From contig JAHFHF010000005.1 of NCBI GenBank assembly GCA_023247055.1, positions 18,985 through 82,984 on the forward strand: DNA of 64,000 nt, given 5' to 3'. Position 1 is the first letter of the stretch. Each line of letters begins with the position of its first letter. The notes under the pieces are model-generated. The model was not told where the DNA came from and did not search any database. It saw nothing but the letters and a program-made list of their open reading frames with translations. The position numbers and the translations under genes are program-made. Shown in pieces: positions 1-50,330 of the stretch. The DNA is from Candidatus Omnitrophota bacterium. GTDB taxonomy: Bacteria; Omnitrophota; Omnitrophia; Omnitrophales; Aquincolibacteriaceae.

Positions 1-3000
1 TATGTGCTGCTGGCGTTGCAACAGCGTTTTCCCGATCAATTCCCTCAGGCCGCAGCCGAAAAGCTGAGCGGATTCTTTCAGAGCTATCAACAGCAAACCC
101 CCAGCCGTCCTGCGAAAAAGGGAGACATCATCGCCTTCGGTGCTTTTGAAAGTCCGCAGCAATTTCAAGATTATATCGATTTCAAAGATGAACTTTTGTT
201 TGCGGTCGTCCCGGCGCCGGGAAATTGGCGGTTTCAGGATCACGCCTATGAATTTATGGCCCAGCGCAACAAGGGCCGGATGGAGATGACCTTCTATCGC
301 GGAGATGGAACAATCGATGAAAATAGAACGGCAGATGACAAACTGCTCGAGAGCGGACTGCTGACAAAAGGAAATATTATTTTTGTGCTGCGCGGAACCC
401 CAAATGGGATTTCAATGCCGCCTATTTTTCCTCGAGTCGCCGGCCGGATGGGACACACCCACCCTCCGGACACTGTTATTCCAGGGGAAAGCGAAAATGA
501 TTCGCTGACCTATCTTGCGAATCATCAGGAACTAGGTATTACCAGGCGTAACTTGCTTTCTGCCCGCTCCGAAGTGCGGCACACGCCGGATGAAATAGGC
601 GCAAAGATGGCTGAAGCGAGGCGATTGATTGCGGGCAATCAAATTCAGCAGGCAGAAGATACTTTGCTGGAGCTTTTTGAAAGTTCGCGCCAGGAGTGGG
701 ATGCCCGGCAGACGTATAAGGATGAAACTGCAAAAACGGAAGTTAAGGGAGATGTAGGAGATTTGCTTCATTTGGCGGAGTTAGCGCTTGCCGCGGCCGT
801 GGCATTGGAGGATTCTGAAACGCCAAAAGCCAAGAAACGTGCGTGGAACCCTTTTCATTCTTTCGAATATTTTTATTTAATAGCACGCTCTCCGGAAGTT
901 GTGCCCTTTTTGCGAGAAAATCATGCTGCTTTCCAACAGATGGGGCTTTATGCGGGGTCGTATATTTCGAAAATGAATGAGTTGCAAAATCAGGAAACGC
1001 AATCCCGGCAATATGGGGGGGAGCCGCCGGAAAAATTATTGCAAAATTCTAATCTTGTAAGCCCCCATTTTTTTGCATTAGCTAAAAATGTTTCAAGGCG
1101 ATTGCACGGCGAATTGACATTTGAAAACGGAGAGAACCCCTTTAGGGGTTTGCTGCGCTTAAATGGAGAGTTCAGCGGCACCACTGCCCATTTTCCGGAC
1201 CATCAAGCGCTCGAGTTTTTGATTTCCCATGCTTCCATCCTGCTGGAACTGAGTGCTCCTGCGCTTGCGGGCTATTTGCAGTATTTGGCGCATTATATAG
1301 CCAAGACTATGCAGACAGACGGGTATTACGAAACCGAAATCAATCGAGGAAATGAAGACCTGCCGCGGATTCAGGTTTACAGGAATCCTTTAGCCAGCTT
1401 AAGTATTCTTCAAGGGCTGTTTTCTATCCAAAATGATTCCCAGGATCAGAAAACAAACAGGGCGATAAACTATCTTCGCATCATGTCGCTATACGTCTCG
1501 TTGGACCAGCCGGATTCAATCCTGCAAGTTCTCGATGAAGTTCTTCCTGAATTATCTAAAGTGGAGAAGAAGGATCGGGATGTATTTGCATACACCCTTC
1601 TTAGAATTTACAGATCGAATTTGACGGAAAACCAAAAAGCAGAAGCCGTCCGCCGGGCGGGCTCGTCTTTTCACGTCAAAAAGATAATCGGGGATATCAG
1701 CAATGAACAGGCGCTTGAAATTTTAAACCGTTTAGCACGCCTGGATGCCCAGTCCGCATTGCCGCGCATGATTCCTGAAACCACGCCCGAATTTTACAGC
1801 CGTCATGCGGAATTATTGACGGCTTTTGAAGGCCTGCCGGCAGCGGAGCAGGATGCCCTCGCGAATTTTTTATACGAAGAATTTGCCGACCGAAATTTAA
1901 CAGAAGCCTCTCTCAAAGCGCTGCTTAGCCCCCAGGCGGTTTCTTTTTATGCCAGGCATGGCCGGCAATCCGAACTTCTGGTTTCTTTTATCGCGCGTTT
2001 CCCCGGCCAGTTAGAGGCCATTACCCGGGAAGGCAGTGAGTTTGTGGCTTTAATGCTGCAGTTAATCCAGTTAGATCCTAAATTTTCAAAAGGATATATT
2101 AGTTTTCTGCATTATTCGGAACAAAGCGAATATCTTCAAACAACAGAGGTTTTGGAAAGATGGATTCAGCTTGTTAAAAAAGAGCCCAAAGGGGCAGAGC
2201 AGGTCTTTGCCCTTTTGCGGAAACGGCCGGAACTGGCGCCTGCCATTTTATTTGGGGGCATTTCGGAAAGTTTGATGCAAATGAAGCCGGATGTCCGGGC
2301 AAGTTATGTGGATGCCGCGGGCAACAGATCGGCGGAAACTTCCGCAGAATGGGTGGCCCCTGCCATTGCCGAAATCGCTGCGGTATTAAAAGGCCGCGCG
2401 GAGGCGGAAGCATTCAACAAGAGGTTTACACAAGACGAGGCCTTTCGGACATTAACGCTGGATGAAGCAATGCGCGCGCCGCTCATTGAAAATTTGGCGC
2501 GCCAGCCAGTCGCGACCCAAGCATCCTATCTTAGAAATGTCACGCCAGACATTTTACAGGATCCTGCCATGGCCGATTTTCAGGTGCGTCTCGACGCCAT
2601 TGAAGACGCGGAGTTGAAAGGGGAAATCCTGGAAGCCATCTCGAAAAACAAAGTTTTCAGAGACTATCTGATGCAGGGGGGCCTGGGTTTTCTGATAGAG
2701 TTGATTCAGAGCAGCCCCGACGCGAACGAAGGTCTAAATCGGGCTCAAGGCTATGTCCTCATTCTGCGCTACGATTCTTCCGGTGCTCTTACCGTCGCCG
2801 ATTATCAAAGTATTCAAGGAAAATACGGTGGGCTCCTGACGGATGCGGAGGTACCCTTATCCTTTTCTGCCGAAATCCTAAGGCTTGCAAGGAACCAGCC
2901 TGCCTTAATAGGTCACATCGATTTGACCCTGCTGAGAGAACTTCACAATCAATTGGGCGAACTTTTCGATGATTTTATTAACATTGCCTGTGAGGATCCG

Positions 3001-32722: not shown

Positions 32723-33874
32723 TTATTCCGCCGGTCCGATATAAACCAGTTTGCCGTTTTGGACTTGGAAAACGCCGATAAATTGTTTTTCATTGTCGCC
32801 AATGGCATTGAATTTGACTTCGCCGGTAATACCGGTAAAGGAGGGGATTTCGCGCATCGCTTTTAAAATCGCTTCACGGTTCTTGACGCCGGCTTTACGG
32901 ATGGCAGCGATTAAAATATTCGTGGCATCGTAGCTGTAGGCGGACCACTGTCCGAGCTCACCGTAGCGGGCGCGGAACGCGGCGATAAAATCTTTAGCGG
33001 CCGGAATTTTTTCAACATCGCCGCCGACCATGGTGGCATAGGTGCCTTCGGCAATAGGCGCGCTGGCAAGTTCAACCAAAATCAGCGTGGCAATACCGTC
33101 GCCGCCTATAAACGGGATCGGGATGCCCAGCCCCCGCGCCTGGCGCAGCAGCAGGGCGCCCTCAGGATAAATTCCGCCAAAATAAATGAATTCAGGCGCA
33201 AGCGGTTTAATGCGGGTCAGAAGCGGCGTGAAATCCTTGTCGCCCTGGGTTATGCTCTCATGGCCGAGAACGGTCATGCCAAGTTTTAAGGCTTCTTTTT
33301 TGAATTCATCCGCCAAACCTTTACCGTAGGTCGTTTTGTCATCAATGATAAAAACTTTTTTGAGTCCCAGTTGATGGGCCGCGAATTTTGCACCGCTCGG
33401 CCCTTGAACGTCGTCAGTTGCAGAAACCCGGAAAAAGGTATCAAAGCCTTGTTTGGAAAGTTCAGGGTTGGTCGAGCCTGCCGTCAATTCGGTGAGACGG
33501 GCCTCGTAATAAATGGCGGAAGCGGGCTTGGTGCAGCTGGAATTGAAATGCCCCATGACGGCCATGACGTCGCTGTCGGAAACAAATTTCTTGGCAACGT
33601 TCACGGCTTGGGCCGGATTGCGCTGGTCATCCAACAGGAGCGCCTCGAGTTTATAACCAGGAATAATTTCGCCCTGCTGATTAGTTTCTGCAACGGCAAG
33701 TTCAAGGCCGCGGCACAGGTCCAGGCCCAACTGGGCCTGGTCGCCGGTCAAAGGCGCCGCACAGCCGATTTTGATGACGGGGGCGGAACTTTCTCCGGAA
33801 CAGCCGGCGAGCGCTGAGAGTAAAAATGCGGTGGCAAGGTGTCTTATCTTAATTTTAGAATGAAAAAAACGCAT
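32723..33874 (-). CDS. livK: Branched-chain amino acid ABC transporter periplasmic substrate-binding lipoprotein (LivK/LivJ family).
   Basis: Signal peptide with lipobox LAGCSG, and the type I periplasmic binding fold signature (IKIGCAAPLTGDQAQLG...). It is the first gene of the operon. Confidence 0.85.
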   Translation of the reverse strand: MRFFHSKIKIRHLATAFLLSALAGCSGESSAPVIKIGCAAPLTGDQAQLGLDLCRGLELAVAETNQQGEIIPGYKLEALLLDDQRNPAQAVNVAKKFVSDSDVMAVMGHFNSSCTKPASAIYYEARLTELTAGSTNPELSKQGFDTFFRVSATDDVQGPSGAKFAAHQLGLKKVFIIDDKTTYGKGLADEFKKEALKLGMTVLGHESITQGDKDFTPLLTRIKPLAPEFIYFGGIYPEGALLLRQARGLGIPIPFIGGDGIATLILVELASAPIAEGTYATMVGGDVEKIPAAKDFIAAFRARYGELGQWSAYSYDATNILIAAIRKAGVKNREAILKAMREIPSFTGITGEVKFNAIGDNEKQFIGVFQVQNGKLVYIGPAE

Positions 33875-33939: not shown

Positions 33940-34167
33940 GCAGAATAGAGCCGATATTGAAACATCCACGACACAGCCCATCAGGCTGTGCGTGGACAGT
34001 CTCTGCGATAGACGCAGAGGCAGAATAGAGCCGATATTGAAACATCCACGACACAGCCCATCAGGCTGTGCATGGACAGTCTCTGCGATAGACGCAGAGG
34101 CAGAATAGAGCCGATATTGAAACATCCACGACACAGCCCATCAGGCTGTGCGTGGACAAGTCTCTAC
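33940..34167. repeat. Tandem direct repeat: 80-bp unit x 2.85 (copies start at 33940, 34020 and 34100). Each unit contains two stem-loops.
   Basis: Units are near-identical, with one G/A difference in copy 2 and a truncated, diverged copy 3. Each unit contains CCACGACACAGCC-CATCA-GGCTGTGCGTGG and CTCTGCG-ATAGA-CGCAGAG. The units are contiguous with no spacers. The array lies in the divergent region between the livK start (33874, - strand) and the secreted-protein gene (34218, + strand). Confidence 0.9.
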
Positions 34168-34217
34168 ACTTTGTTTTTTACGGTTGTTATCTCCAAAACG
34201 GATTCAAAGGAGTTTGT

Positions 34218-44193: not shown

Positions 44194-44292
44194 TCATTGC
44201 GGGCTCTCGCTGTTTTTTTAGCGTGCGCCGAAGCAATCTCAAGAGCAAACGAGATTGCTTCGGCCTCAAATTGAATGTTGCCTCGCAATGAC
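44194..44292. mobile_element. MITE/REP-like element (~100 bp) with terminal inverted repeats GTCATTGCGGGC / GCCTCGCAATGAC and a perfect internal hairpin.
   Basis: Internal 13-bp hairpin CCGAAGCAATCTC-AAGAGCAAAC-GAGATTGCTTCGG. Related copies are at 47592-47685, 47698-47783 and 52056-52146, with a partial copy at 29018-29062. Confidence 0.6.
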
Positions 44293-44470
44293 GAGAATGA
44301 CATGGGATCAACAATCACATGCATGATCGTATTTGCCTCCGCGCAAATGCGAGAATGACATGGGATCAACAATCACATGCATGATCGTATTTGCCTCCGC
44401 GCAAATGCGAGAATGACATGGGATCAACAATCACATGCATGATCGTATTTGCCTCCGCGCAAATGCGAGG
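44283..44470. repeat. Tandem repeat, 58-bp unit x about 3 (period measured between 44341 and 44399), abutting the MITE end.
   Basis: Unit GCGCAAATGCGAGAATGACATGGGATCAACAATCACATGCATGATCGTATTTGCCTCC repeated exactly. The first copy is a variant that contains the MITE terminus (TGCCTCGCAATGACGAGAATGACATGGG). Confidence 0.85.
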
Positions 44471-45318: not shown

Positions 45319-46766
45319 GTAAAGATAAAGCTGCTCATATTGTTGTTGCGGACAAAGACGCCGATGTCTGTGACCTGGTGGCAACGCGGCTTTCCAACCG
45401 CGGCTTCCGCATCAGTATGGCCGGGACCATGGAAGAATTGCTGCGCCATCTTGACCGCGACCCGCCGGTCCTGATTCTGGTGTCTTCCGAGATGGAGCGC
45501 CTGGGCGGCCGCCACCCGGTTGAAAAAATCCGCGAAAAAACGCATTTGGCCGCTGTGCCGGTGATTTTGCTGACGCGTGAAAGCGAAATTGCCGAGTTGA
45601 TTCTGGGGCAGGACCGCGGTTTTGACGACTTTCTGATCAAGCCGTTCAGCCCGCTTATTTTACAGCTGCGGGTCGCGCTCAATATGAGCCGCGCGCGCAT
45701 TCGCAGCGATGCCAATGCGTTGACGCATTTGCCAGGCAATGCGGCGATTGAGAAAACCATTAAAACGAAAATCGAACGCGGCGAAAAATTTTCCGTGCTC
45801 TATATCGACATCAATCAATTTAAGGCGTTTAACGACCGCTATGGCTTTGAAAAAGGCGATGACGTGCTGAAACATACGGCCAAACTTTTGACGCACACGC
45901 GCGAAAAAACACGGGGCTGCGAAGATTGTTTCGTAGGACACATTGGCGGCGATGATTTTATCGTGGTCTTGCCGCCGGAACATGAAGAAACATTTGCGCG
46001 AACGTTTATTCAGGAGTTTGACAGCGTGATGCTGTCCTATTACAGCGATGCGGACCGCAGCCGGGGCCATGTGCGTCTGACCAACCGGCGCGGCAAACGT
46101 GAAAATATTCCGCTGATGTCGTGTTCGGTCGCCGCTTGCAATAATGTTTACCGCCCTTATAAAAACCTGGGTGAGATTGCACGCGATGCCGCTGAGGTCA
46201 AAAGTTTTCTGAAATCGCAGACAGGCAGCCACTATCTGCGAGACCGGCGGTCGGAACCGATTGCGCGGCTTGATACCGCGGTCGAAATTTTATCTCCCGA
46301 AGTCGAGGCGCTCGGAAGCCGCGCCAAAGATTCAGATCCCCTGGGGCGGGTGCTCGTGAATGCCGGCCTGCTTACGGAAGAACAGCTTGAACTAGCCATC
46401 AAACGCCACCTCGAAACGCGCCAGCGGCTGGGCCAGACGCTGATTGCTATGAATTTGGTTTCCAGCCAGGATGTGGGGCGGATGCTGGAAAAAAAATTGC
46501 GGGTGCCGTATGTGAGTTTGGCCCAAGCCCGCATTGCGCGCGAAACGCTGCGGATTTTTACGGTGGATTTTATGCGCTCGCACCGCGTTGTGCCCCTCTC
46601 CGCATCCGGCGCGCGCCTGAAGCTGGCCATGTGCGACCCGTTTGACCTTAAAACTTTAGACGCCATTGAACGCGTCAGCCAATACAAACCCGAGCCGTGC
46701 CTTGCGCTCGAAGACGAGTTTGAATCGTTTATCGAAAGCTACGGTCCTTCCGAGAGGACCGCATGA
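45315..46766 (+). CDS. Multidomain signalling protein: degenerate receiver (REC) domain, GGDEF-family domain (GGDDF variant) and a C-terminal MshEN / T2SS-E N-terminal-like (c-di-GMP-binding) domain.
   Basis: TTG start overlapping the panB stop. The REC-like N-terminus lacks the phospho-acceptor Asp (VLILVSSEMERLGG). The GGDEF-like core is FKAFNDRYGFEKGDDVL...GHIGGDDFIVVL. The C-terminal ~110 aa (LGRVLVNAGLLTEEQLELAI...FDLKTLDAIERVSQ) resembles the GSPII_E N-terminal/MshEN fold. Confidence 0.6.
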   Translation: MSKDKAAHIVVADKDADVCDLVATRLSNRGFRISMAGTMEELLRHLDRDPPVLILVSSEMERLGGRHPVEKIREKTHLAAVPVILLTRESEIAELILGQDRGFDDFLIKPFSPLILQLRVALNMSRARIRSDANALTHLPGNAAIEKTIKTKIERGEKFSVLYIDINQFKAFNDRYGFEKGDDVLKHTAKLLTHTREKTRGCEDCFVGHIGGDDFIVVLPPEHEETFARTFIQEFDSVMLSYYSDADRSRGHVRLTNRRGKRENIPLMSCSVAACNNVYRPYKNLGEIARDAAEVKSFLKSQTGSHYLRDRRSEPIARLDTAVEILSPEVEALGSRAKDSDPLGRVLVNAGLLTEEQLELAIKRHLETRQRLGQTLIAMNLVSSQDVGRMLEKKLRVPYVSLAQARIARETLRIFTVDFMRSHRVVPLSASGARLKLAMCDPFDLKTLDAIERVSQYKPEPCLALEDEFESFIESYGPSERTA

Positions 46767-47584
46767 GCGTTTCCAGAATCATTCTGGCTTTCGCCGCCTT
46801 TTTTTACGGCGCTGCGTTTCTGCTGCATCTGATGTCTTTTTTCGGCCAGCGTGAAAACAACCGTGCCGCGTCCCGTCTGATGCAAACCGGTTTTACCGCG
46901 GCGACGTTTTATTTCATGGTTGAGGCGGCCACGCTGGCAACGTTCTTCCCCGTTGCAGACATCTCACATGCCCTGGCCTTTTTTGCCTGGTCTCTGGCAT
47001 TCGTCTATCTTGTCCCGCTTTCCCATATCCGCAGTGATTCTTTTGGTCTGGTCCTTACGCCGGTGTTGACGCTGCTTGTGAGCGCGGCTGCGCTAACGGC
47101 GGTTTTGCCCGCCAAAGGTGCTCTGCCGCCGGCCAGTCCATTTTTTATGCTGCATATCTTGTGTGCTTTTTTTGCCTATGCCAGTTTCACCATTTCGTTT
47201 GCCGCCGGCCTGCTTTATTTGATCCAGCGTCATGAACTTAAAGCACGCCGGACGGGCGCGTTTTACCACAAACTGCCGTCACTGGAAGAGTTGGAAAGAC
47301 TCATCGACCAGCCCATGCTTTGGGGCGCTGCGCTGCTGGTGGCCGCTATTGCGATCGGGTTTGTCTGGTCAAAGACGGCGTTTGGCATGTATTCGCTCAC
47401 CGATCCCAAGACGATTGCCACCGGCATTGTGACTTTGATTTACGGAATGATTCTCGGCCTGCGTCTCGGCGCCCGTCTGCGGGCCAAGCACGCAGCGGTC
47501 TTAAGCGTTGCCGCGTTTGCACTGGTGATTCTGAGTTTCGTAGGCATGCGTTTTATTCAAGGCAGCCATAATTTTTTAGCGTAG
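46763..47584 (+). CDS. CcsA-like cytochrome c assembly family membrane protein (HemX-like, as found in hem operons).
   Basis: Eight-TM protein with CcsA-family character directly upstream of hemA; compare B. subtilis hemAXCDBL. Confidence 0.55.
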   Translation: MSVSRIILAFAAFFYGAAFLLHLMSFFGQRENNRAASRLMQTGFTAATFYFMVEAATLATFFPVADISHALAFFAWSLAFVYLVPLSHIRSDSFGLVLTPVLTLLVSAAALTAVLPAKGALPPASPFFMLHILCAFFAYASFTISFAAGLLYLIQRHELKARRTGAFYHKLPSLEELERLIDQPMLWGAALLVAAIAIGFVWSKTAFGMYSLTDPKTIATGIVTLIYGMILGLRLGARLRAKHAAVLSVAAFALVILSFVGMRFIQGSHNFLA

Positions 47585-47591
47585 ATTTTTG

Positions 47592-47783
47592 GCATTGCGA
47601 GGCAGCGAGGCACTAAAACTGAATCGGTCTCAATGAGATTGCTTCGACGTCCGTTGAATGTTGTCTCGCAATGACAAAAAAAGTGGTCCTTTGTCATTGC
47701 GAAGCAGTGAGGCATTAAGGCTGAAGCAATCCCAATGAGATTGCTTTGGCTTCAATGGGTACGCCGCCTCGCAATGACAAAGT
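47592..47783. mobile_element. Two tandem copies of the GTCATTGCG-type MITE/REP-like element (47592-47685 and 47698-47783).
   Basis: Each copy has CATTGCGAGGCAG...GAGATTGCTT...CTCGCAATGAC architecture, with an internal GAAGCAATC/GAGATTGCTT palindrome. Confidence 0.6.
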
Positions 47784-47818
47784 GTGAGAATGAAAATTCA
47801 GGAATAAAATAAAATCAT

Positions 47819-47965
47819 ATGGGATTATTCGTCATTGGATTGAATCATAAAGAATGCCCCGTGGAAGTGCACGAACGCCTGCCCCTGCGCTTTTGTTTGC
47901 GCAGGGGCTGTGCCTCGGCGGCCAATGAAGCTGCCGTAGGCATAAAGCCGTTCGCTAAAATTTAG
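47819..47965 (+). other. Upstream mini-ORF (48 aa) formed by a diverged duplication of the hemA 5' end, with a strong internal hairpin.
   Basis: ATGGGATTATTCGTCATTGGATTGAATCATAAAGAATGCCCCGTGGAAGTGCACGAACGCCTGC... mirrors the hemA start ATGGGACTTTTTGTCATTGGTTTGAATCACAAGGAATGTCCGGTTGAGGTGCGCGAACGCCTGC..., then diverges into the hairpin CCCCTGCGC-TTTTGTTT-GCGCAGGGG. It stops at TAG (47963-47965), 6 nt before the real hemA ATG. Confidence 0.6.
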
Positions 47966-47971
47966 GAATTT

Positions 47972-49246
47972 ATGGGACTTTTTGTCATTGGTTTGAATCA
48001 CAAGGAATGTCCGGTTGAGGTGCGCGAACGCCTGCATTTTTCTGCGCAGCTTGCGGAGAAGGCCTTGACGGCCATGAAAGAAGCCGGCGATATTTCTGAA
48101 TTTGCGCTTTTGTCGACCTGCAACCGGGTGGAATTTTACGGTTACACGGAACAAGGGCAGCCCCGCGAGGCGGTCCTGGCGCTGATCGAAAGCCTGCACG
48201 GCATCCGCCGCAATGAATTTGAGCATTTTCTTTATCTGCATGAATCCAAAGATGCGGTGCGGCATCTGTTCCGCGTGGCCGCGGGGCTTGATTCGCTGGT
48301 CGTCGGCGAAAATGAAATTCTCGGTCAGCTGCGCGATGCCTTTAAAGCCGCCAATCAGGCGGGCACGATCCATTCACTGCTTTACCGCCTGATGGAAAAA
48401 GCGCTCAAGACCGGCAAGGAAGTGCAGACACGCACCAAGATTGCTCAAGGGGCGGTCAGTATTCCTGCCGTGGCCGTCGAATTGGCGGAAAAAATTTTCG
48501 GGACTTTGTCCGGAGAAAAAGTCATGGTGCTTGGGACCGGTGAAATGAGCGTGCTGACGCTGAAAAATTTACGCACCGCCGGGGCCGATATCGCCTATAT
48601 CGCGAGCCGTAATGAAGAAAAAGGCCGCGCGTTGGCCAAGGAATATGGCGCTATTTGGCTGTCCATGGAAGAGTGGCAGCGCGAACTGACCGGCGTGGAT
48701 ATTTTGATTGCCTCCACAGCTGCTCCGTATCCCATTGTCCTTAAAACGCATGTGGCTGGGGTCATGGCCGCGCGGCGCAGGCGGCCTGTTTTTTTAATTG
48801 ATATTGCGGTGCCGCGCAACATCGAGCCTGAAGTCAACCAGATCGACGACGTTTTTCTCTACAATGTCGATGACCTCAAAGGCGTCTCCGCTGCCAACCT
48901 AAAATTGCGCCGCGGTGAAATCCGGGCGGCCGACGACATTGTCGACCAGGCCGTGATCCAGTTTCAATCGTGGTTTGAACAACTTGCCGCGCGTCCGACG
49001 GTCGAGCGTTTTGAAGAATTTCTGGAACAAGTCCTGCAGGCCGAGTTTGCGGAACTGGCGCGCGAAACCGGACTGTGCGAAGAACGCAAACAGCAGATCA
49101 TGAACCGTTTGAAAGCGAAGATTCTCCACCGGCCGTTTGAAAAGATCAAAGAAGCCTCCAAAAACGGCGGCGTCAAAAAACACGTCGAAGCGCTGCATTC
49201 ATTGTTCAATTTGGATACCGATCAAGCACCGAGCACCAAGCACTGA
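47972..49246 (+). CDS. hemA: Glutamyl-tRNA reductase.
   Basis: MGLFVIGLNHKECPVEVRERL..., the catalytic Cys region LSTCNRVEFY and NAD-binding GTGEMS are all canonical HemA. Confidence 0.92.
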   Translation: MGLFVIGLNHKECPVEVRERLHFSAQLAEKALTAMKEAGDISEFALLSTCNRVEFYGYTEQGQPREAVLALIESLHGIRRNEFEHFLYLHESKDAVRHLFRVAAGLDSLVVGENEILGQLRDAFKAANQAGTIHSLLYRLMEKALKTGKEVQTRTKIAQGAVSIPAVAVELAEKIFGTLSGEKVMVLGTGEMSVLTLKNLRTAGADIAYIASRNEEKGRALAKEYGAIWLSMEEWQRELTGVDILIASTAAPYPIVLKTHVAGVMAARRRRPVFLIDIAVPRNIEPEVNQIDDVFLYNVDDLKGVSAANLKLRRGEIRAADDIVDQAVIQFQSWFEQLAARPTVERFEEFLEQVLQAEFAELARETGLCEERKQQIMNRLKAKILHRPFEKIKEASKNGGVKKHVEALHSLFNLDTDQAPSTKH

Positions 49247-49391
49247 GTTTTGAGCGCTAAGCCGTAAACGAGCGGCGGATAATTTTTTGCGCCTGCAAAA
49301 CATTTTCCTCTATGAAAAATTTAAAAACTTATTTTTTGTTCTCTCGGTGCTTAGTGCTCGGTGCTCAGGGCTTGGTGCTCGGTGCTTTCTC

Positions 49392-50330
49392 ATGAAAACC
49401 CGCGTTAGAATCGGAACGCGCGGCAGCGCCCTCGCCCTCTACCAGGCTGAGTTATTCAAAAACAAACTGGCCAATGATTTTTCCATGGTTGCTTTTGAGC
49501 TGGTTGTTATTAAAACAGCGGGAGATGTTCGGGGCACGCGTAGTATGCGCGGCGGCGACGATAGCAAAACACTCTTTACGCGCGAAATCGAAGAAGCGCT
49601 GCTGTGTGAAGACATTGATCTGGCCGTCCATAGCGCCAAAGACCTTGCCGCCGTCATGCCGCGTGGACTTCGGATCGGGGCTGTTCTTGAACGTGAAGAC
49701 CCGCGCGACTGTCTGGTCGCCCGCAAAAATATTCCTTTGGCCCATCTTGAATCCGGTGCGCGGATCGGCACCAGTGCACTGCGCCGCAAGGCCCAGCTTT
49801 TGCGCTTTAATCAGGATTTGGTGATCGAGGAATTGCATGGCAATGTGGACACGCGCGTTAAAAAAGCCCTGCAAGGTGATTTCGACGCCATTGTGCTTGC
49901 GCATGCGGGTTTGAAGCGGCTCGGCTTGGTCGATCATGTTTCTGAAATTTTTGACGCAGAACGTTTTTTACCAGCGCCCGGTCAGGGCATTATCCTTGCC
50001 CAAATCCGGCAGGGTGATGCCCAAACCCAGGCGTTGCTCGAGCCGGTCAATCACAAACCGACTCTGACGCGGCTCGTCTGCGAGCGCGCTTTTCTCAAGC
50101 GGCTAGGCGGCGGCTGCCAACTGCCCTGCGGCATGCTGACCGAATTGACACCCGGAAAATTAAAAGCCCGTGGCATTCTGTTGATGCCGGACGGTTCGCA
50201 TTGTATTGAGCGTGAAATTGAAGACCCCGGCGGCGACCCTGAAGCCACCGGCATGGAACTTGCCGAAATAATTCTTGAAGAAGGCGGCAGGAAGATCTTA
50301 AATGCCATTGAAAAAAGTAATGAGGCCTGA
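49392..50330 (+). CDS. hemC: Porphobilinogen deaminase (hydroxymethylbilane synthase).
   Basis: MKTRVRIGTRGSALALYQAE... is canonical HemC. The track ORF starts at 49287, but the first in-frame ATG matching the HemC N-terminus is at 49392. Confidence 0.9.
   Translation: MKTRVRIGTRGSALALYQAELFKNKLANDFSMVAFELVVIKTAGDVRGTRSMRGGDDSKTLFTREIEEALLCEDIDLAVHSAKDLAAVMPRGLRIGAVLEREDPRDCLVARKNIPLAHLESGARIGTSALRRKAQLLRFNQDLVIEELHGNVDTRVKKALQGDFDAIVLAHAGLKRLGLVDHVSEIFDAERFLPAPGQGIILAQIRQGDAQTQALLEPVNHKPTLTRLVCERAFLKRLGGGCQLPCGMLTELTPGKLKARGILLMPDGSHCIEREIEDPGGDPEATGMELAEIILEEGGRKILNAIEKSNEA

Follow-up and report, generated by a model that had tools for sequence, protein, structure and literature searches.

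Glutamyl-tRNA reductase (GluTR), the product of hemA, is the control point of tetrapyrrole synthesis, and the bacterial controls of HemA known to us act on the protein, through proteolysis directed by its N-terminus or through HemX. At the RNA level, intercistronic stem-loops such as the repetitive extragenic palindromic elements and bacterial interspersed mosaic elements (REP-BIME) stabilize or partition operon mRNAs. Translational coupling mediated by an upstream open reading frame (uORF) is likewise an established bacterial mechanism, validated for example in Sinorhizobium meliloti (PMC13285730). GluTR is controlled by N-terminal proteolysis in Salmonella and by HemX in Bacillus and Staphylococcus (PMC5801465). 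Here we describe a cassette located between a hemX-like gene and hemA in a 64-kb stretch of Omnitrophota DNA (the window, whose positions serve as coordinates throughout), composed of a copy of the hemA start, two predicted hairpins, and an AU-rich tail. No hemA leader RNA, leader peptide, or leader ORF was found in Rfam or in the literature searched. Judged by sequence comparison, the cassette is genuine and conserved, and it adds a hitherto undescribed element to a key point of metabolic control; a non-adaptive explanation of it is still credible.

Like the coupled uORFs of S. meliloti (PMC13285730), the predicted leader ORF ends on or next to the Shine-Dalgarno sequence and start codon of its main gene. 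Unlike those uORFs, it copies the main gene's own start, and it forms part of a tandem unit that is present in zero to two copies and carries two selected hairpins. The parallel with the post-translational control of GluTR (PMC5801465) lies in the enzyme itself and in the adjacent gene for a PF01578 HemX-like protein, and the mini-ORF carries the N-terminal segment that is a degradation determinant in Salmonella (PMC5801465). The Salmonella and HemX mechanisms, however, act at the protein level and in other phyla, and the gene order here is hemX-like followed by hemA, not gtrR-hemX. As with REP-BIME and other intercistronic stem-loops, tandem GC-rich hairpins stand between co-oriented genes, in a spacer that is a repeat hot spot; unlike them, the hemA hairpins derive partly from hemA coding sequence, lie inside an ORF, and are not high-copy in the 64 kb. 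The principle of a leader ORF, of coupling, and of a structured leader is known, and the new features are a leader made from the gene's own start, its form as a 0–2-copy cassette, and the selection on its hairpins.

A repeat search reveals a direct repeat of 65 nt (47818–47882 and 47971–48035) with 83% identity and a spacing of 153 nt, bearing out the diverged duplication of the hemA 5' end proposed in a preliminary description of this DNA. The upstream copy opens a mini-ORF of 48 codons that ends 6 nt before the hemA start codon, also as proposed there. Its TAG stop codon (47963–47965) overlaps the hemA Shine-Dalgarno sequence AGGA and is followed by GAATTT and the hemA ATG at 47972. A copy of the hemA ribosome-binding region lies further upstream, pushed away from the mini-ORF ATG by a 12-nt insertion. 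Downstream of the copied codons, positions 47883–47945 are colinear, with indels, with hemA 48036–48100, a score matched by 1 of 2,000 shuffles. On the strength of the ribosome-binding copy and this colinear alignment, the cassette is best described as a partial tandem duplication reaching ~30 nt upstream of hemA and covering approximately its first 120 nt. Within it, the copy of hemA codons 22–40 is, as aligned, reshaped into the two hairpins, a remodeling that fits the short palindrome CTGCGCAG at the place in hemA equivalent to hairpin 1 (48042–48049), where it had previously been noticed. The cassette tail has no significant similarity to the 3' end of the hemX-like gene. The 48-residue mini-ORF product matches the GluTR model over residues 1–23 only (E = 0.0099, 14.8 bits) and is without the full GluTR catalytic domain and without the STCNR motif that holds the active-site Cys. 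The sequence is identical in two further assemblies (ENA ERZ27280021 and Logan SRR14366787), which, together with homologous cassettes in three other lineages, excludes an assembly artefact.

The preliminary description allowed for a local duplication scar, marked by absence of the duplicated segment from close relatives together with lack of transcription through it; a cassette with conserved hairpins is present in three further lineages. Six cassettes are found in four species-level lineages, one in the window, two in L006, one in L023, and two in L024 (relatives are labeled L003–L024, with cassette copies suffixed A or B). All six share an order of hemA codons 1–14 (up to 21), hairpin 1, hairpin 2, and an AU-rich tail ending in TTAGGMATTT-ATG, with unit lengths of 153 nt (window), 132 and 132 nt (L006), 199 nt (L023), 137 nt (L024A), and 132 nt (L024B). 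Each includes a copy of the hemA ribosome-binding region and retains an intact ATG, intact first 14 codons, and an open frame to the next start, with stop-to-next-ATG distances of 6, 6, 6, 13, −16, and 6 nt. The hemA frame is shared by the cassettes of the window, L006, and L024B. The TAG-N6-ATG junction of the window recurs in L006A, L006B, and L024B, and also forms the hemX-stop/hemA-start junction of L008. Among the indels that separate cassettes, most preserve the frame (18, 12, and 3 nt); L023, with its inserted element, and L024A, with its rearranged tail, are the exceptions. L006, L023, and L024 have orthologous tails (GTAAGAATCA..GGCCATTAAT..TTAGG) in their hemA-proximal cassettes, and the arrangement is therefore older than the divergence of these lineages.

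The hemX-like gene adjoins hemA in all relatives. The upstream regions of L003, L004, L005, L012, and L015 (60–79% HemA identity) and of the closer L007, L008, and L009 were read and contain no second hemA start; in these lineages, the hemX-like gene stops 6–123 nt before hemA or overlaps it. HemA and HemX-like trees place the window outside the clade of L006–L009, with L023 and L024 closest to members of that clade, so carriers and non-carriers are interleaved. Homologous mini-ORFs are called in L006 (P0121) and L023 (P0123), with two more in L024, and the three gene-caller mini-ORFs are singletons by cluster look-up among ~15 billion proteins. In an exhaustive profile search with the mini-ORF, the L023 carrier is the sole further significant match; searching proteins by word index with the mini-ORF alignment gave no more than the two known peptides, and HemA scans of genome contigs (3 loci) and metagenome contigs (7 loci) yielded no new carriers. 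One candidate homolog from a representative search, P0124, turned out to be an unrelated repetitive protein. Recent lateral transfer of the whole region between the window and L006 was rejected, identity being not locally raised in the hemA 5' or hemX 3' flanks. We regard the cassette as a repeat specific to a small uncultured Omnitrophota clade, where it occupies the hemX-hemA spacer.

The perfect stem CCCCTGCGC/GCGCAGGGG noted earlier is real and lies within hairpin 1, which folds as a 10-bp helix. Directly after it begins hairpin 2, which goes beyond the preliminary description, as do the 0–2-copy repeat nature of the cassette and the adjacent repeats resembling miniature inverted-repeat transposable elements (MITE-like repeats). 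The folds are far more stable than those of shuffled sequences (z = −4.75 and −4.09), the former value belonging to a 116-nt fold with both hairpins (−53.5 kcal/mol), whose stability is reached by 0 of 200 shuffles. A search for the hairpin-1 pattern gave a single occurrence in the 64 kb and none in 100 shuffles. Across the six cassettes, the hairpin-1 stem is nearly invariant while its loop varies in sequence and length, and 88.9% of stem cells are paired versus 31–46% in slid controls. In hairpin 2, four pairs are altered on both sides, a count reached by 4 of 500 shuffles; the clearest double change, in the outer stem, converts AUGCCU/AGGCAU (window, L006A, and L024A) to AUUCUU/AAGAAU (L024B). 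This covariation across species shows that pairing in hairpin 2 is under selection.

Between the window and L006, 66 of 86 positions (77%) are identical in the non-hemA part of the cassette, and the parental hemA segment (codons ~15–45) shows only 54–62% identity. Differences in the non-hemA part are concentrated in unpaired columns (14 of 31 in loops and tail versus 7 of 48 in stems, p = 0.004). They are spread evenly over codon positions (7/8/5), which shows that it is not the encoded peptide that is constrained. Synonymous sites between the carrier genomes are saturated, with a proportion of synonymous differences (pS) of ~0.7 and, for the window versus L006, a synonymous divergence (dS) above 2. 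G-U pairs and a higher stability of the sense strand are a mild pointer to RNA-level structure on the hemA-sense strand. In L023, the loop of hairpin 2 holds a net insertion of 61 nt (~60 nt), with an intact stem base (CGGCGAU/AUCGCCG). An Rfam scan of 47300–48300 gave no meaningful match, the best hits being miRNA models on a MITE-like repeat, far below gathering scores. A covariance model built from the cassettes weakly matches an 80-nt array at 33940–34179, which a loosened hairpin-1 pattern matches as well.

The hairpin-1 loop contains a further short resemblance to hemA. Together with adjacent stem bases, the window loop (47886–47896) is an exact 11-mer of its own hemA at 48103–48113 (TGCGCTTTTGT), and the L006 loop (within 2783–2803) is an exact 11-mer of its own hemA at approximately +108 (GCGTCCAGCGC). 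The two loops are different and their hemA positions lie ~7 codons apart, with 6 of 2,000 and 20 of 2,000 shuffles giving such matches; they could be due to chance or to templated mutation.

The copied codons diverge almost entirely at synonymous sites. Over the 21 shared codons, the window copy differs from hemA at 11 nt, of which 10 are synonymous-type and one is a replacement (R18H). The ratios of synonymous to replacement differences between leader copy and own hemA start are 3:1 in L006B, 7:1 in L023, and 3:0 in L024, amounting to ~24:3 with the window included. Neutral decay of the window's upstream hemA copy is rejected statistically (p ~3e-4). The L023 leader copy, however, is identical at 42 of 42 positions to the real hemA start of L007, from which L023's own hemA start differs at 7 sites. 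L023 and L007 form a mosaic, with 96% identity in hemA (+46 to +182) and 80% in the 3' 588 nt of the hemX-like gene, a pattern that indicates recent recombination or hemA transfer between lineages. Recombination therefore exchanges sequence between leader copies and real starts, by loss or gain of cassettes, conversion, and inter-lineage transfer. As far as these alignments go, the amino acid conservation of the copied N-terminus is explained most simply by recombination with real hemA starts rather than by a functional peptide; additional selection on the peptide may operate, although it is no longer needed to explain the synonymous bias. Synonymous-only divergence of a gene fragment is accordingly no proof of a functional peptide if the fragment can recombine with the live gene.

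Two features of the copied residues concern the protein. The window copy has lost arginine 18, an invariant residue of HemA, and the other cassettes lack codons 16–21. At C13-P14 (48008–48013 in the window), HemA of this Omnitrophota clade reads H-K-x-C-P; Cys-Pro is present in ~100 of the ~120 best HemA homologs (P0001–P0120) and kept in all six mini-ORFs. Proteobacterial HemA has H-K-T-A-P at the same place. By its sequence, the Cys-Pro of the clade resembles a heme-regulatory Cys-Pro motif.

The genes on both sides of the cassette are those named in the preliminary description. The downstream gene is a true hemA, scoring well above the family cutoff (Table 1). The product of the gene just upstream reaches only 89.9 bits against the CcsB model (cutoff 187.6), and this PF01578 protein is assigned as HemX-like because it scores well under that cutoff.

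Table 1. Features of the hemX-like–hemA interval in the window and sources of the other cassette-bearing loci
Feature	Position or source	Strand	Basis
hemX-like gene, 273 aa, PF01578 (CcsA/HemX-type, cytochrome-c-assembly) membrane protein	46763..47584	+	ORF and PF01578 match
Copy of hemA ribosome-binding region, AAAATTCAGGAAT; hemA version AAAATTTAGGAAT at 47948–47960	47794..47806	+	Sequence reading and alignment
Leader mini-ORF, 48 codons and TAG, MGLFVIGLNHKECPVEVHERLPLRFCLRRGCASAANEAAVGIKPFAKI	47819..47965	+	ORF list; NCBI gene call P0122
Copy of hemA codons 1–21; DNA 83% identical to hemA, 20/21 aa identical (R18H)	47819..47882	+	
Hairpin 1, 10-bp helix, GCCCCUGCGC - UUUUGUUU - GCGCAGGGGC	47881..47908	+	Folding
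Hairpin 2, 14 bp with one-base bulge; inner stem CGGCGGC/GCUGCCG, outer stem (U)GUGCCU/AGGCAU(A)	47909..47944	+	Folding
AU-rich tail with hemA Shine-Dalgarno AGGA (47964–47967)	47945..47971	+	Sequence reading
hemA, glutamyl-tRNA reductase, 424 aa, downstream of cassette	47972..49246	+	TIGR01035, 396 bits versus cutoff 209.55
L006, two tandem cassettes	JGI 3300050207, 662-kb contig		
L023, one cassette	JGI 3300051786		
L024, two cassettes	JGI 3300050184		

The conservation of the cassette among relatives suggests that it is probably a small leader with a regulatory role and not a random scar of duplication. We tentatively read it as a translated, structured leader that would couple hemA translation to the upstream ORF and act as a surrogate upstream cistron, a reading that we take seriously while rating it as somewhat short of an even chance. 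The hemX-like gene and hemA overlap or almost abut in L015 and L004, which, with the TAG-N6-ATG junction of L008, implies that hemA was ancestrally coupled in translation to the HemX-like gene. In carriers, 270–387 nt are inserted between the two genes. The cassette would be transcribed as the hemA 5' leader; ribosomes would load on the copied start, melt the hairpins as they translate, and stop at the hemA Shine-Dalgarno sequence, with subsequent re-initiation at hemA or opening of its start region. Such a relay would replace the ancestral coupling of hemA to the hemX-like stop codon, broken by the intergenic insertions. The hairpins would tune the relay, stabilize or protect the hemA mRNA, or both, and the cassette copy number (0, 1, or 2) would set the hemA level. 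Between the layouts offered in the preliminary description, translational coupling fits the locus, with all six ORFs ending within 16 nt of the next start, whereas a classical attenuator does not, since a U-run, a mutually exclusive fold, and an Rfam match are all missing. If the cassette is a regulatory leader, it would provide a clear example of a partial tandem duplication creating a new cis-regulatory element and, if coupling holds, a candidate "dial" by which an uncultured phylum might set expression for heme synthesis.

Several observations weigh against a coupling leader. Usable Shine-Dalgarno sequences precede the starts of L006A, L006B, L024B, and perhaps L023, and neither the window nor L024A has one; in the window, the poor placement results from the 12-nt insertion. 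The hemA Shine-Dalgarno sequence has unpaired probabilities of 0.42, 0.11, 0.45, and 0.45 in carriers versus 0.25–0.79 in non-carriers; with sequestration this inconsistent, structure gives no clear sign that hemA depends on leader translation. Two of the six cassettes (L023 and L024A) are out of frame with the next start. The cassette is missing from L007, L008, and L009, which are nested among carriers, and is therefore dispensable and readily lost. The covariation sample consists of six related cassettes from four lineages, with modest statistics. Hairpin 1 also closely resembles a hairpin of an unrelated tandem array in the window, which may point to a selfish repeat family.

Three further readings were tried and rejected. 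Consistent masking of the hemA Shine-Dalgarno sequence by an arm of hairpin 2 is found only in L006. Stop-codon read-through or bypassing that yields an N-terminally extended HemA is not a conserved function, as the units of L023 (199 nt) and L024A (137 nt) are out of frame. On inspection, mimicry of tRNA-Glu by the hairpin loops fails because the loops are not conserved and contain no anticodon-like motif.

Against the coupling leader stands, above all, a non-functional, recombination-driven tandem repeat or duplication scar, whose hairpins would stem from a selfish REP/MITE-like family in a hemX-hemA spacer that is a hot spot for hairpin repeats and slippage, and which would persist and spread between lineages by homologous recombination through the flanking hemA-start repeats. 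We regard this as unlikely, though credible. The patchy distribution of 0, 1, or 2 copies among related lineages favors it, as does the recombination evident in L023, where the leader copy equals the L007 hemA start (42/42) and identity is 96% in hemA versus 80% in the hemX-like gene. In the window, this spacer also contains a pair of MITE-like hairpin repeats of ~100 nt; L023 and L007 have a double-hairpin element of ~60 nt inserted in opposite orientations; and other young intergenic tandem arrays occur in the window, one with a near-identical hairpin 1. A scar does not readily account for stems conserved while loops and tail diverged by ~45%, for compensatory changes in hairpin 2, for a proximal-cassette tail that is orthologous in three lineages with saturated dS, or for a remodeled segment that is better conserved than its parent coding segment; moreover, the hairpin motif is single-copy in the 64 kb apart from the hemA cassette and the 33940–34179 array. 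The locus resembles gene-fragment pseudogenes in having a duplicated hemA 5' fragment directly upstream of the intact gene and differs from them in the retention of that fragment across species-level lineages, with compensatory stem changes, an intact start, and an open frame. Quite unlikely, in our estimate, is that the hairpins alone matter, whether for mRNA stability, for processing, or for protein binding in the hemA leader, with an incidental, untranslated ORF. Selection is indeed seen on the hairpins and not on the C-terminal peptide, the start of the window mini-ORF is poorly equipped, and a similar double hairpin occurs in the 5' region of another gene; every cassette nevertheless retains the ATG, the first 14 codons, and an open frame to the next start, most indels are in frame, and most cassette starts have a usable Shine-Dalgarno sequence.

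The remaining alternatives concern the peptide or transcription. A trans-acting micropeptide bearing the HemA N-terminus, hydrophobic and degron-like with its Cys-Pro, could compete for a protease or HemX or sense heme and so tune HemA stability; we find this very unlikely. The ~24:3 synonymous bias in the copied codons, the rejection of a neutral upstream-copy model for the window (p ~3e-4), the Cys-Pro conserved in clade HemA and in six mini-ORFs, and the precedents of GluTR N-terminal proteolysis in Salmonella and HemX control of GluTR abundance in Firmicutes (PMC5801465) speak for it, but exchange between leader and real start explains the bias without any peptide function, the remainder of the peptide is not conserved as protein, and the invariant R18 is lost in the window copy, with codons 16–21 deleted elsewhere. 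The more specific proposal of a heme-sensor or decoy micropeptide, acting by a heme-responsive ribosome stall on the leader or by competing in trans with HemA for protease or HemX, is highly improbable; were it true, a duplicate of HemA's own degron would provide feedback from heme status to the synthesis or stability of the enzyme. Least of all do we expect a classical leader-peptide transcription attenuator of the trpL/pyrL type controlling read-through into hemA, which we hold to be extremely improbable. Like trpL and pyrL, the locus places a short leader ORF and, after it, strong GC-rich hairpins immediately before a biosynthetic gene; unlike them, it is without a U-tract, an alternative structure, and a run of regulatory codons. 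The sequences after hairpin 1 (CUGUGCC) and hairpin 2 (AAAGCCG) are not U-runs; a terminator scan finds no plus-strand site at 47881–47950; the minimum free energy and centroid folds give the same two independent hairpins with no competing antiterminator helix; and no Rfam match is obtained.

Other repeats occur in the same spacer and elsewhere in the window. Between the hemX-like stop codon and the mini-ORF lie two tandem repeats of ~100 nt (47586–47680 and 47689–47782; 80% identical), the MITE-like repeats, with terminal inverted repeats TTTGKCATTGCGA...TCGCAATGACAAA; a 251-nt fold of this region reaches −90.7 kcal/mol (z = −6) and forms long hairpins. The 64 kb contains no other copies of them. 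In L023, the insertion in hairpin 2 (745–815) matches, in inverted orientation, a double-hairpin element of the L007 hemX-hemA spacer (2878–3000), with an alignment score of 31.5 versus 7.7 ± 1.4 for shuffles. From these inverted copies, a small mobile hairpin element is taken to target the hemX-hemA spacer in the clade.

The array at 33940–34179, on the minus strand, consists of an 80-nt unit repeated 2.8 times with 97–99% identity, each unit forming a double hairpin. It occupies the divergent spacer between a substrate-binding lipoprotein gene (32723–33874, minus strand) and a plus-strand gene starting at ~34218. Its first hairpin, UGCCUCUGCG-UCUAU-CGCAGAGACUGUCC, is nearly the same as hairpin 1, and the covariance model matches score 26.7 and 24.8 bits. 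Judged by this resemblance, the array and the hemA cassette may belong to a shared repeat or regulatory family. Directly upstream of panB, a 58-nt unit is repeated 3.1 times (44281–44469; 95–99% identical); the unit begins with CCTCGCAATGAC and has TCGCAATGAC in common with the MITE-like repeat ends.

Downstream of hemA, the hemA-hemC spacer contains a 7-nt (or 14-nt) repeat, CTCGGTG, in ~6 copies (49343–49386). This repeat is reverse-complementary to the final 18 nt of hemA (CGAGCACCAAGCACTGAG, 49230–49247), and the two form a long-range inverted repeat that spans the spacer. For hemC, the listed TTG start at 49287 probably makes the gene too long, with an ATG near 49393 as the likely start.

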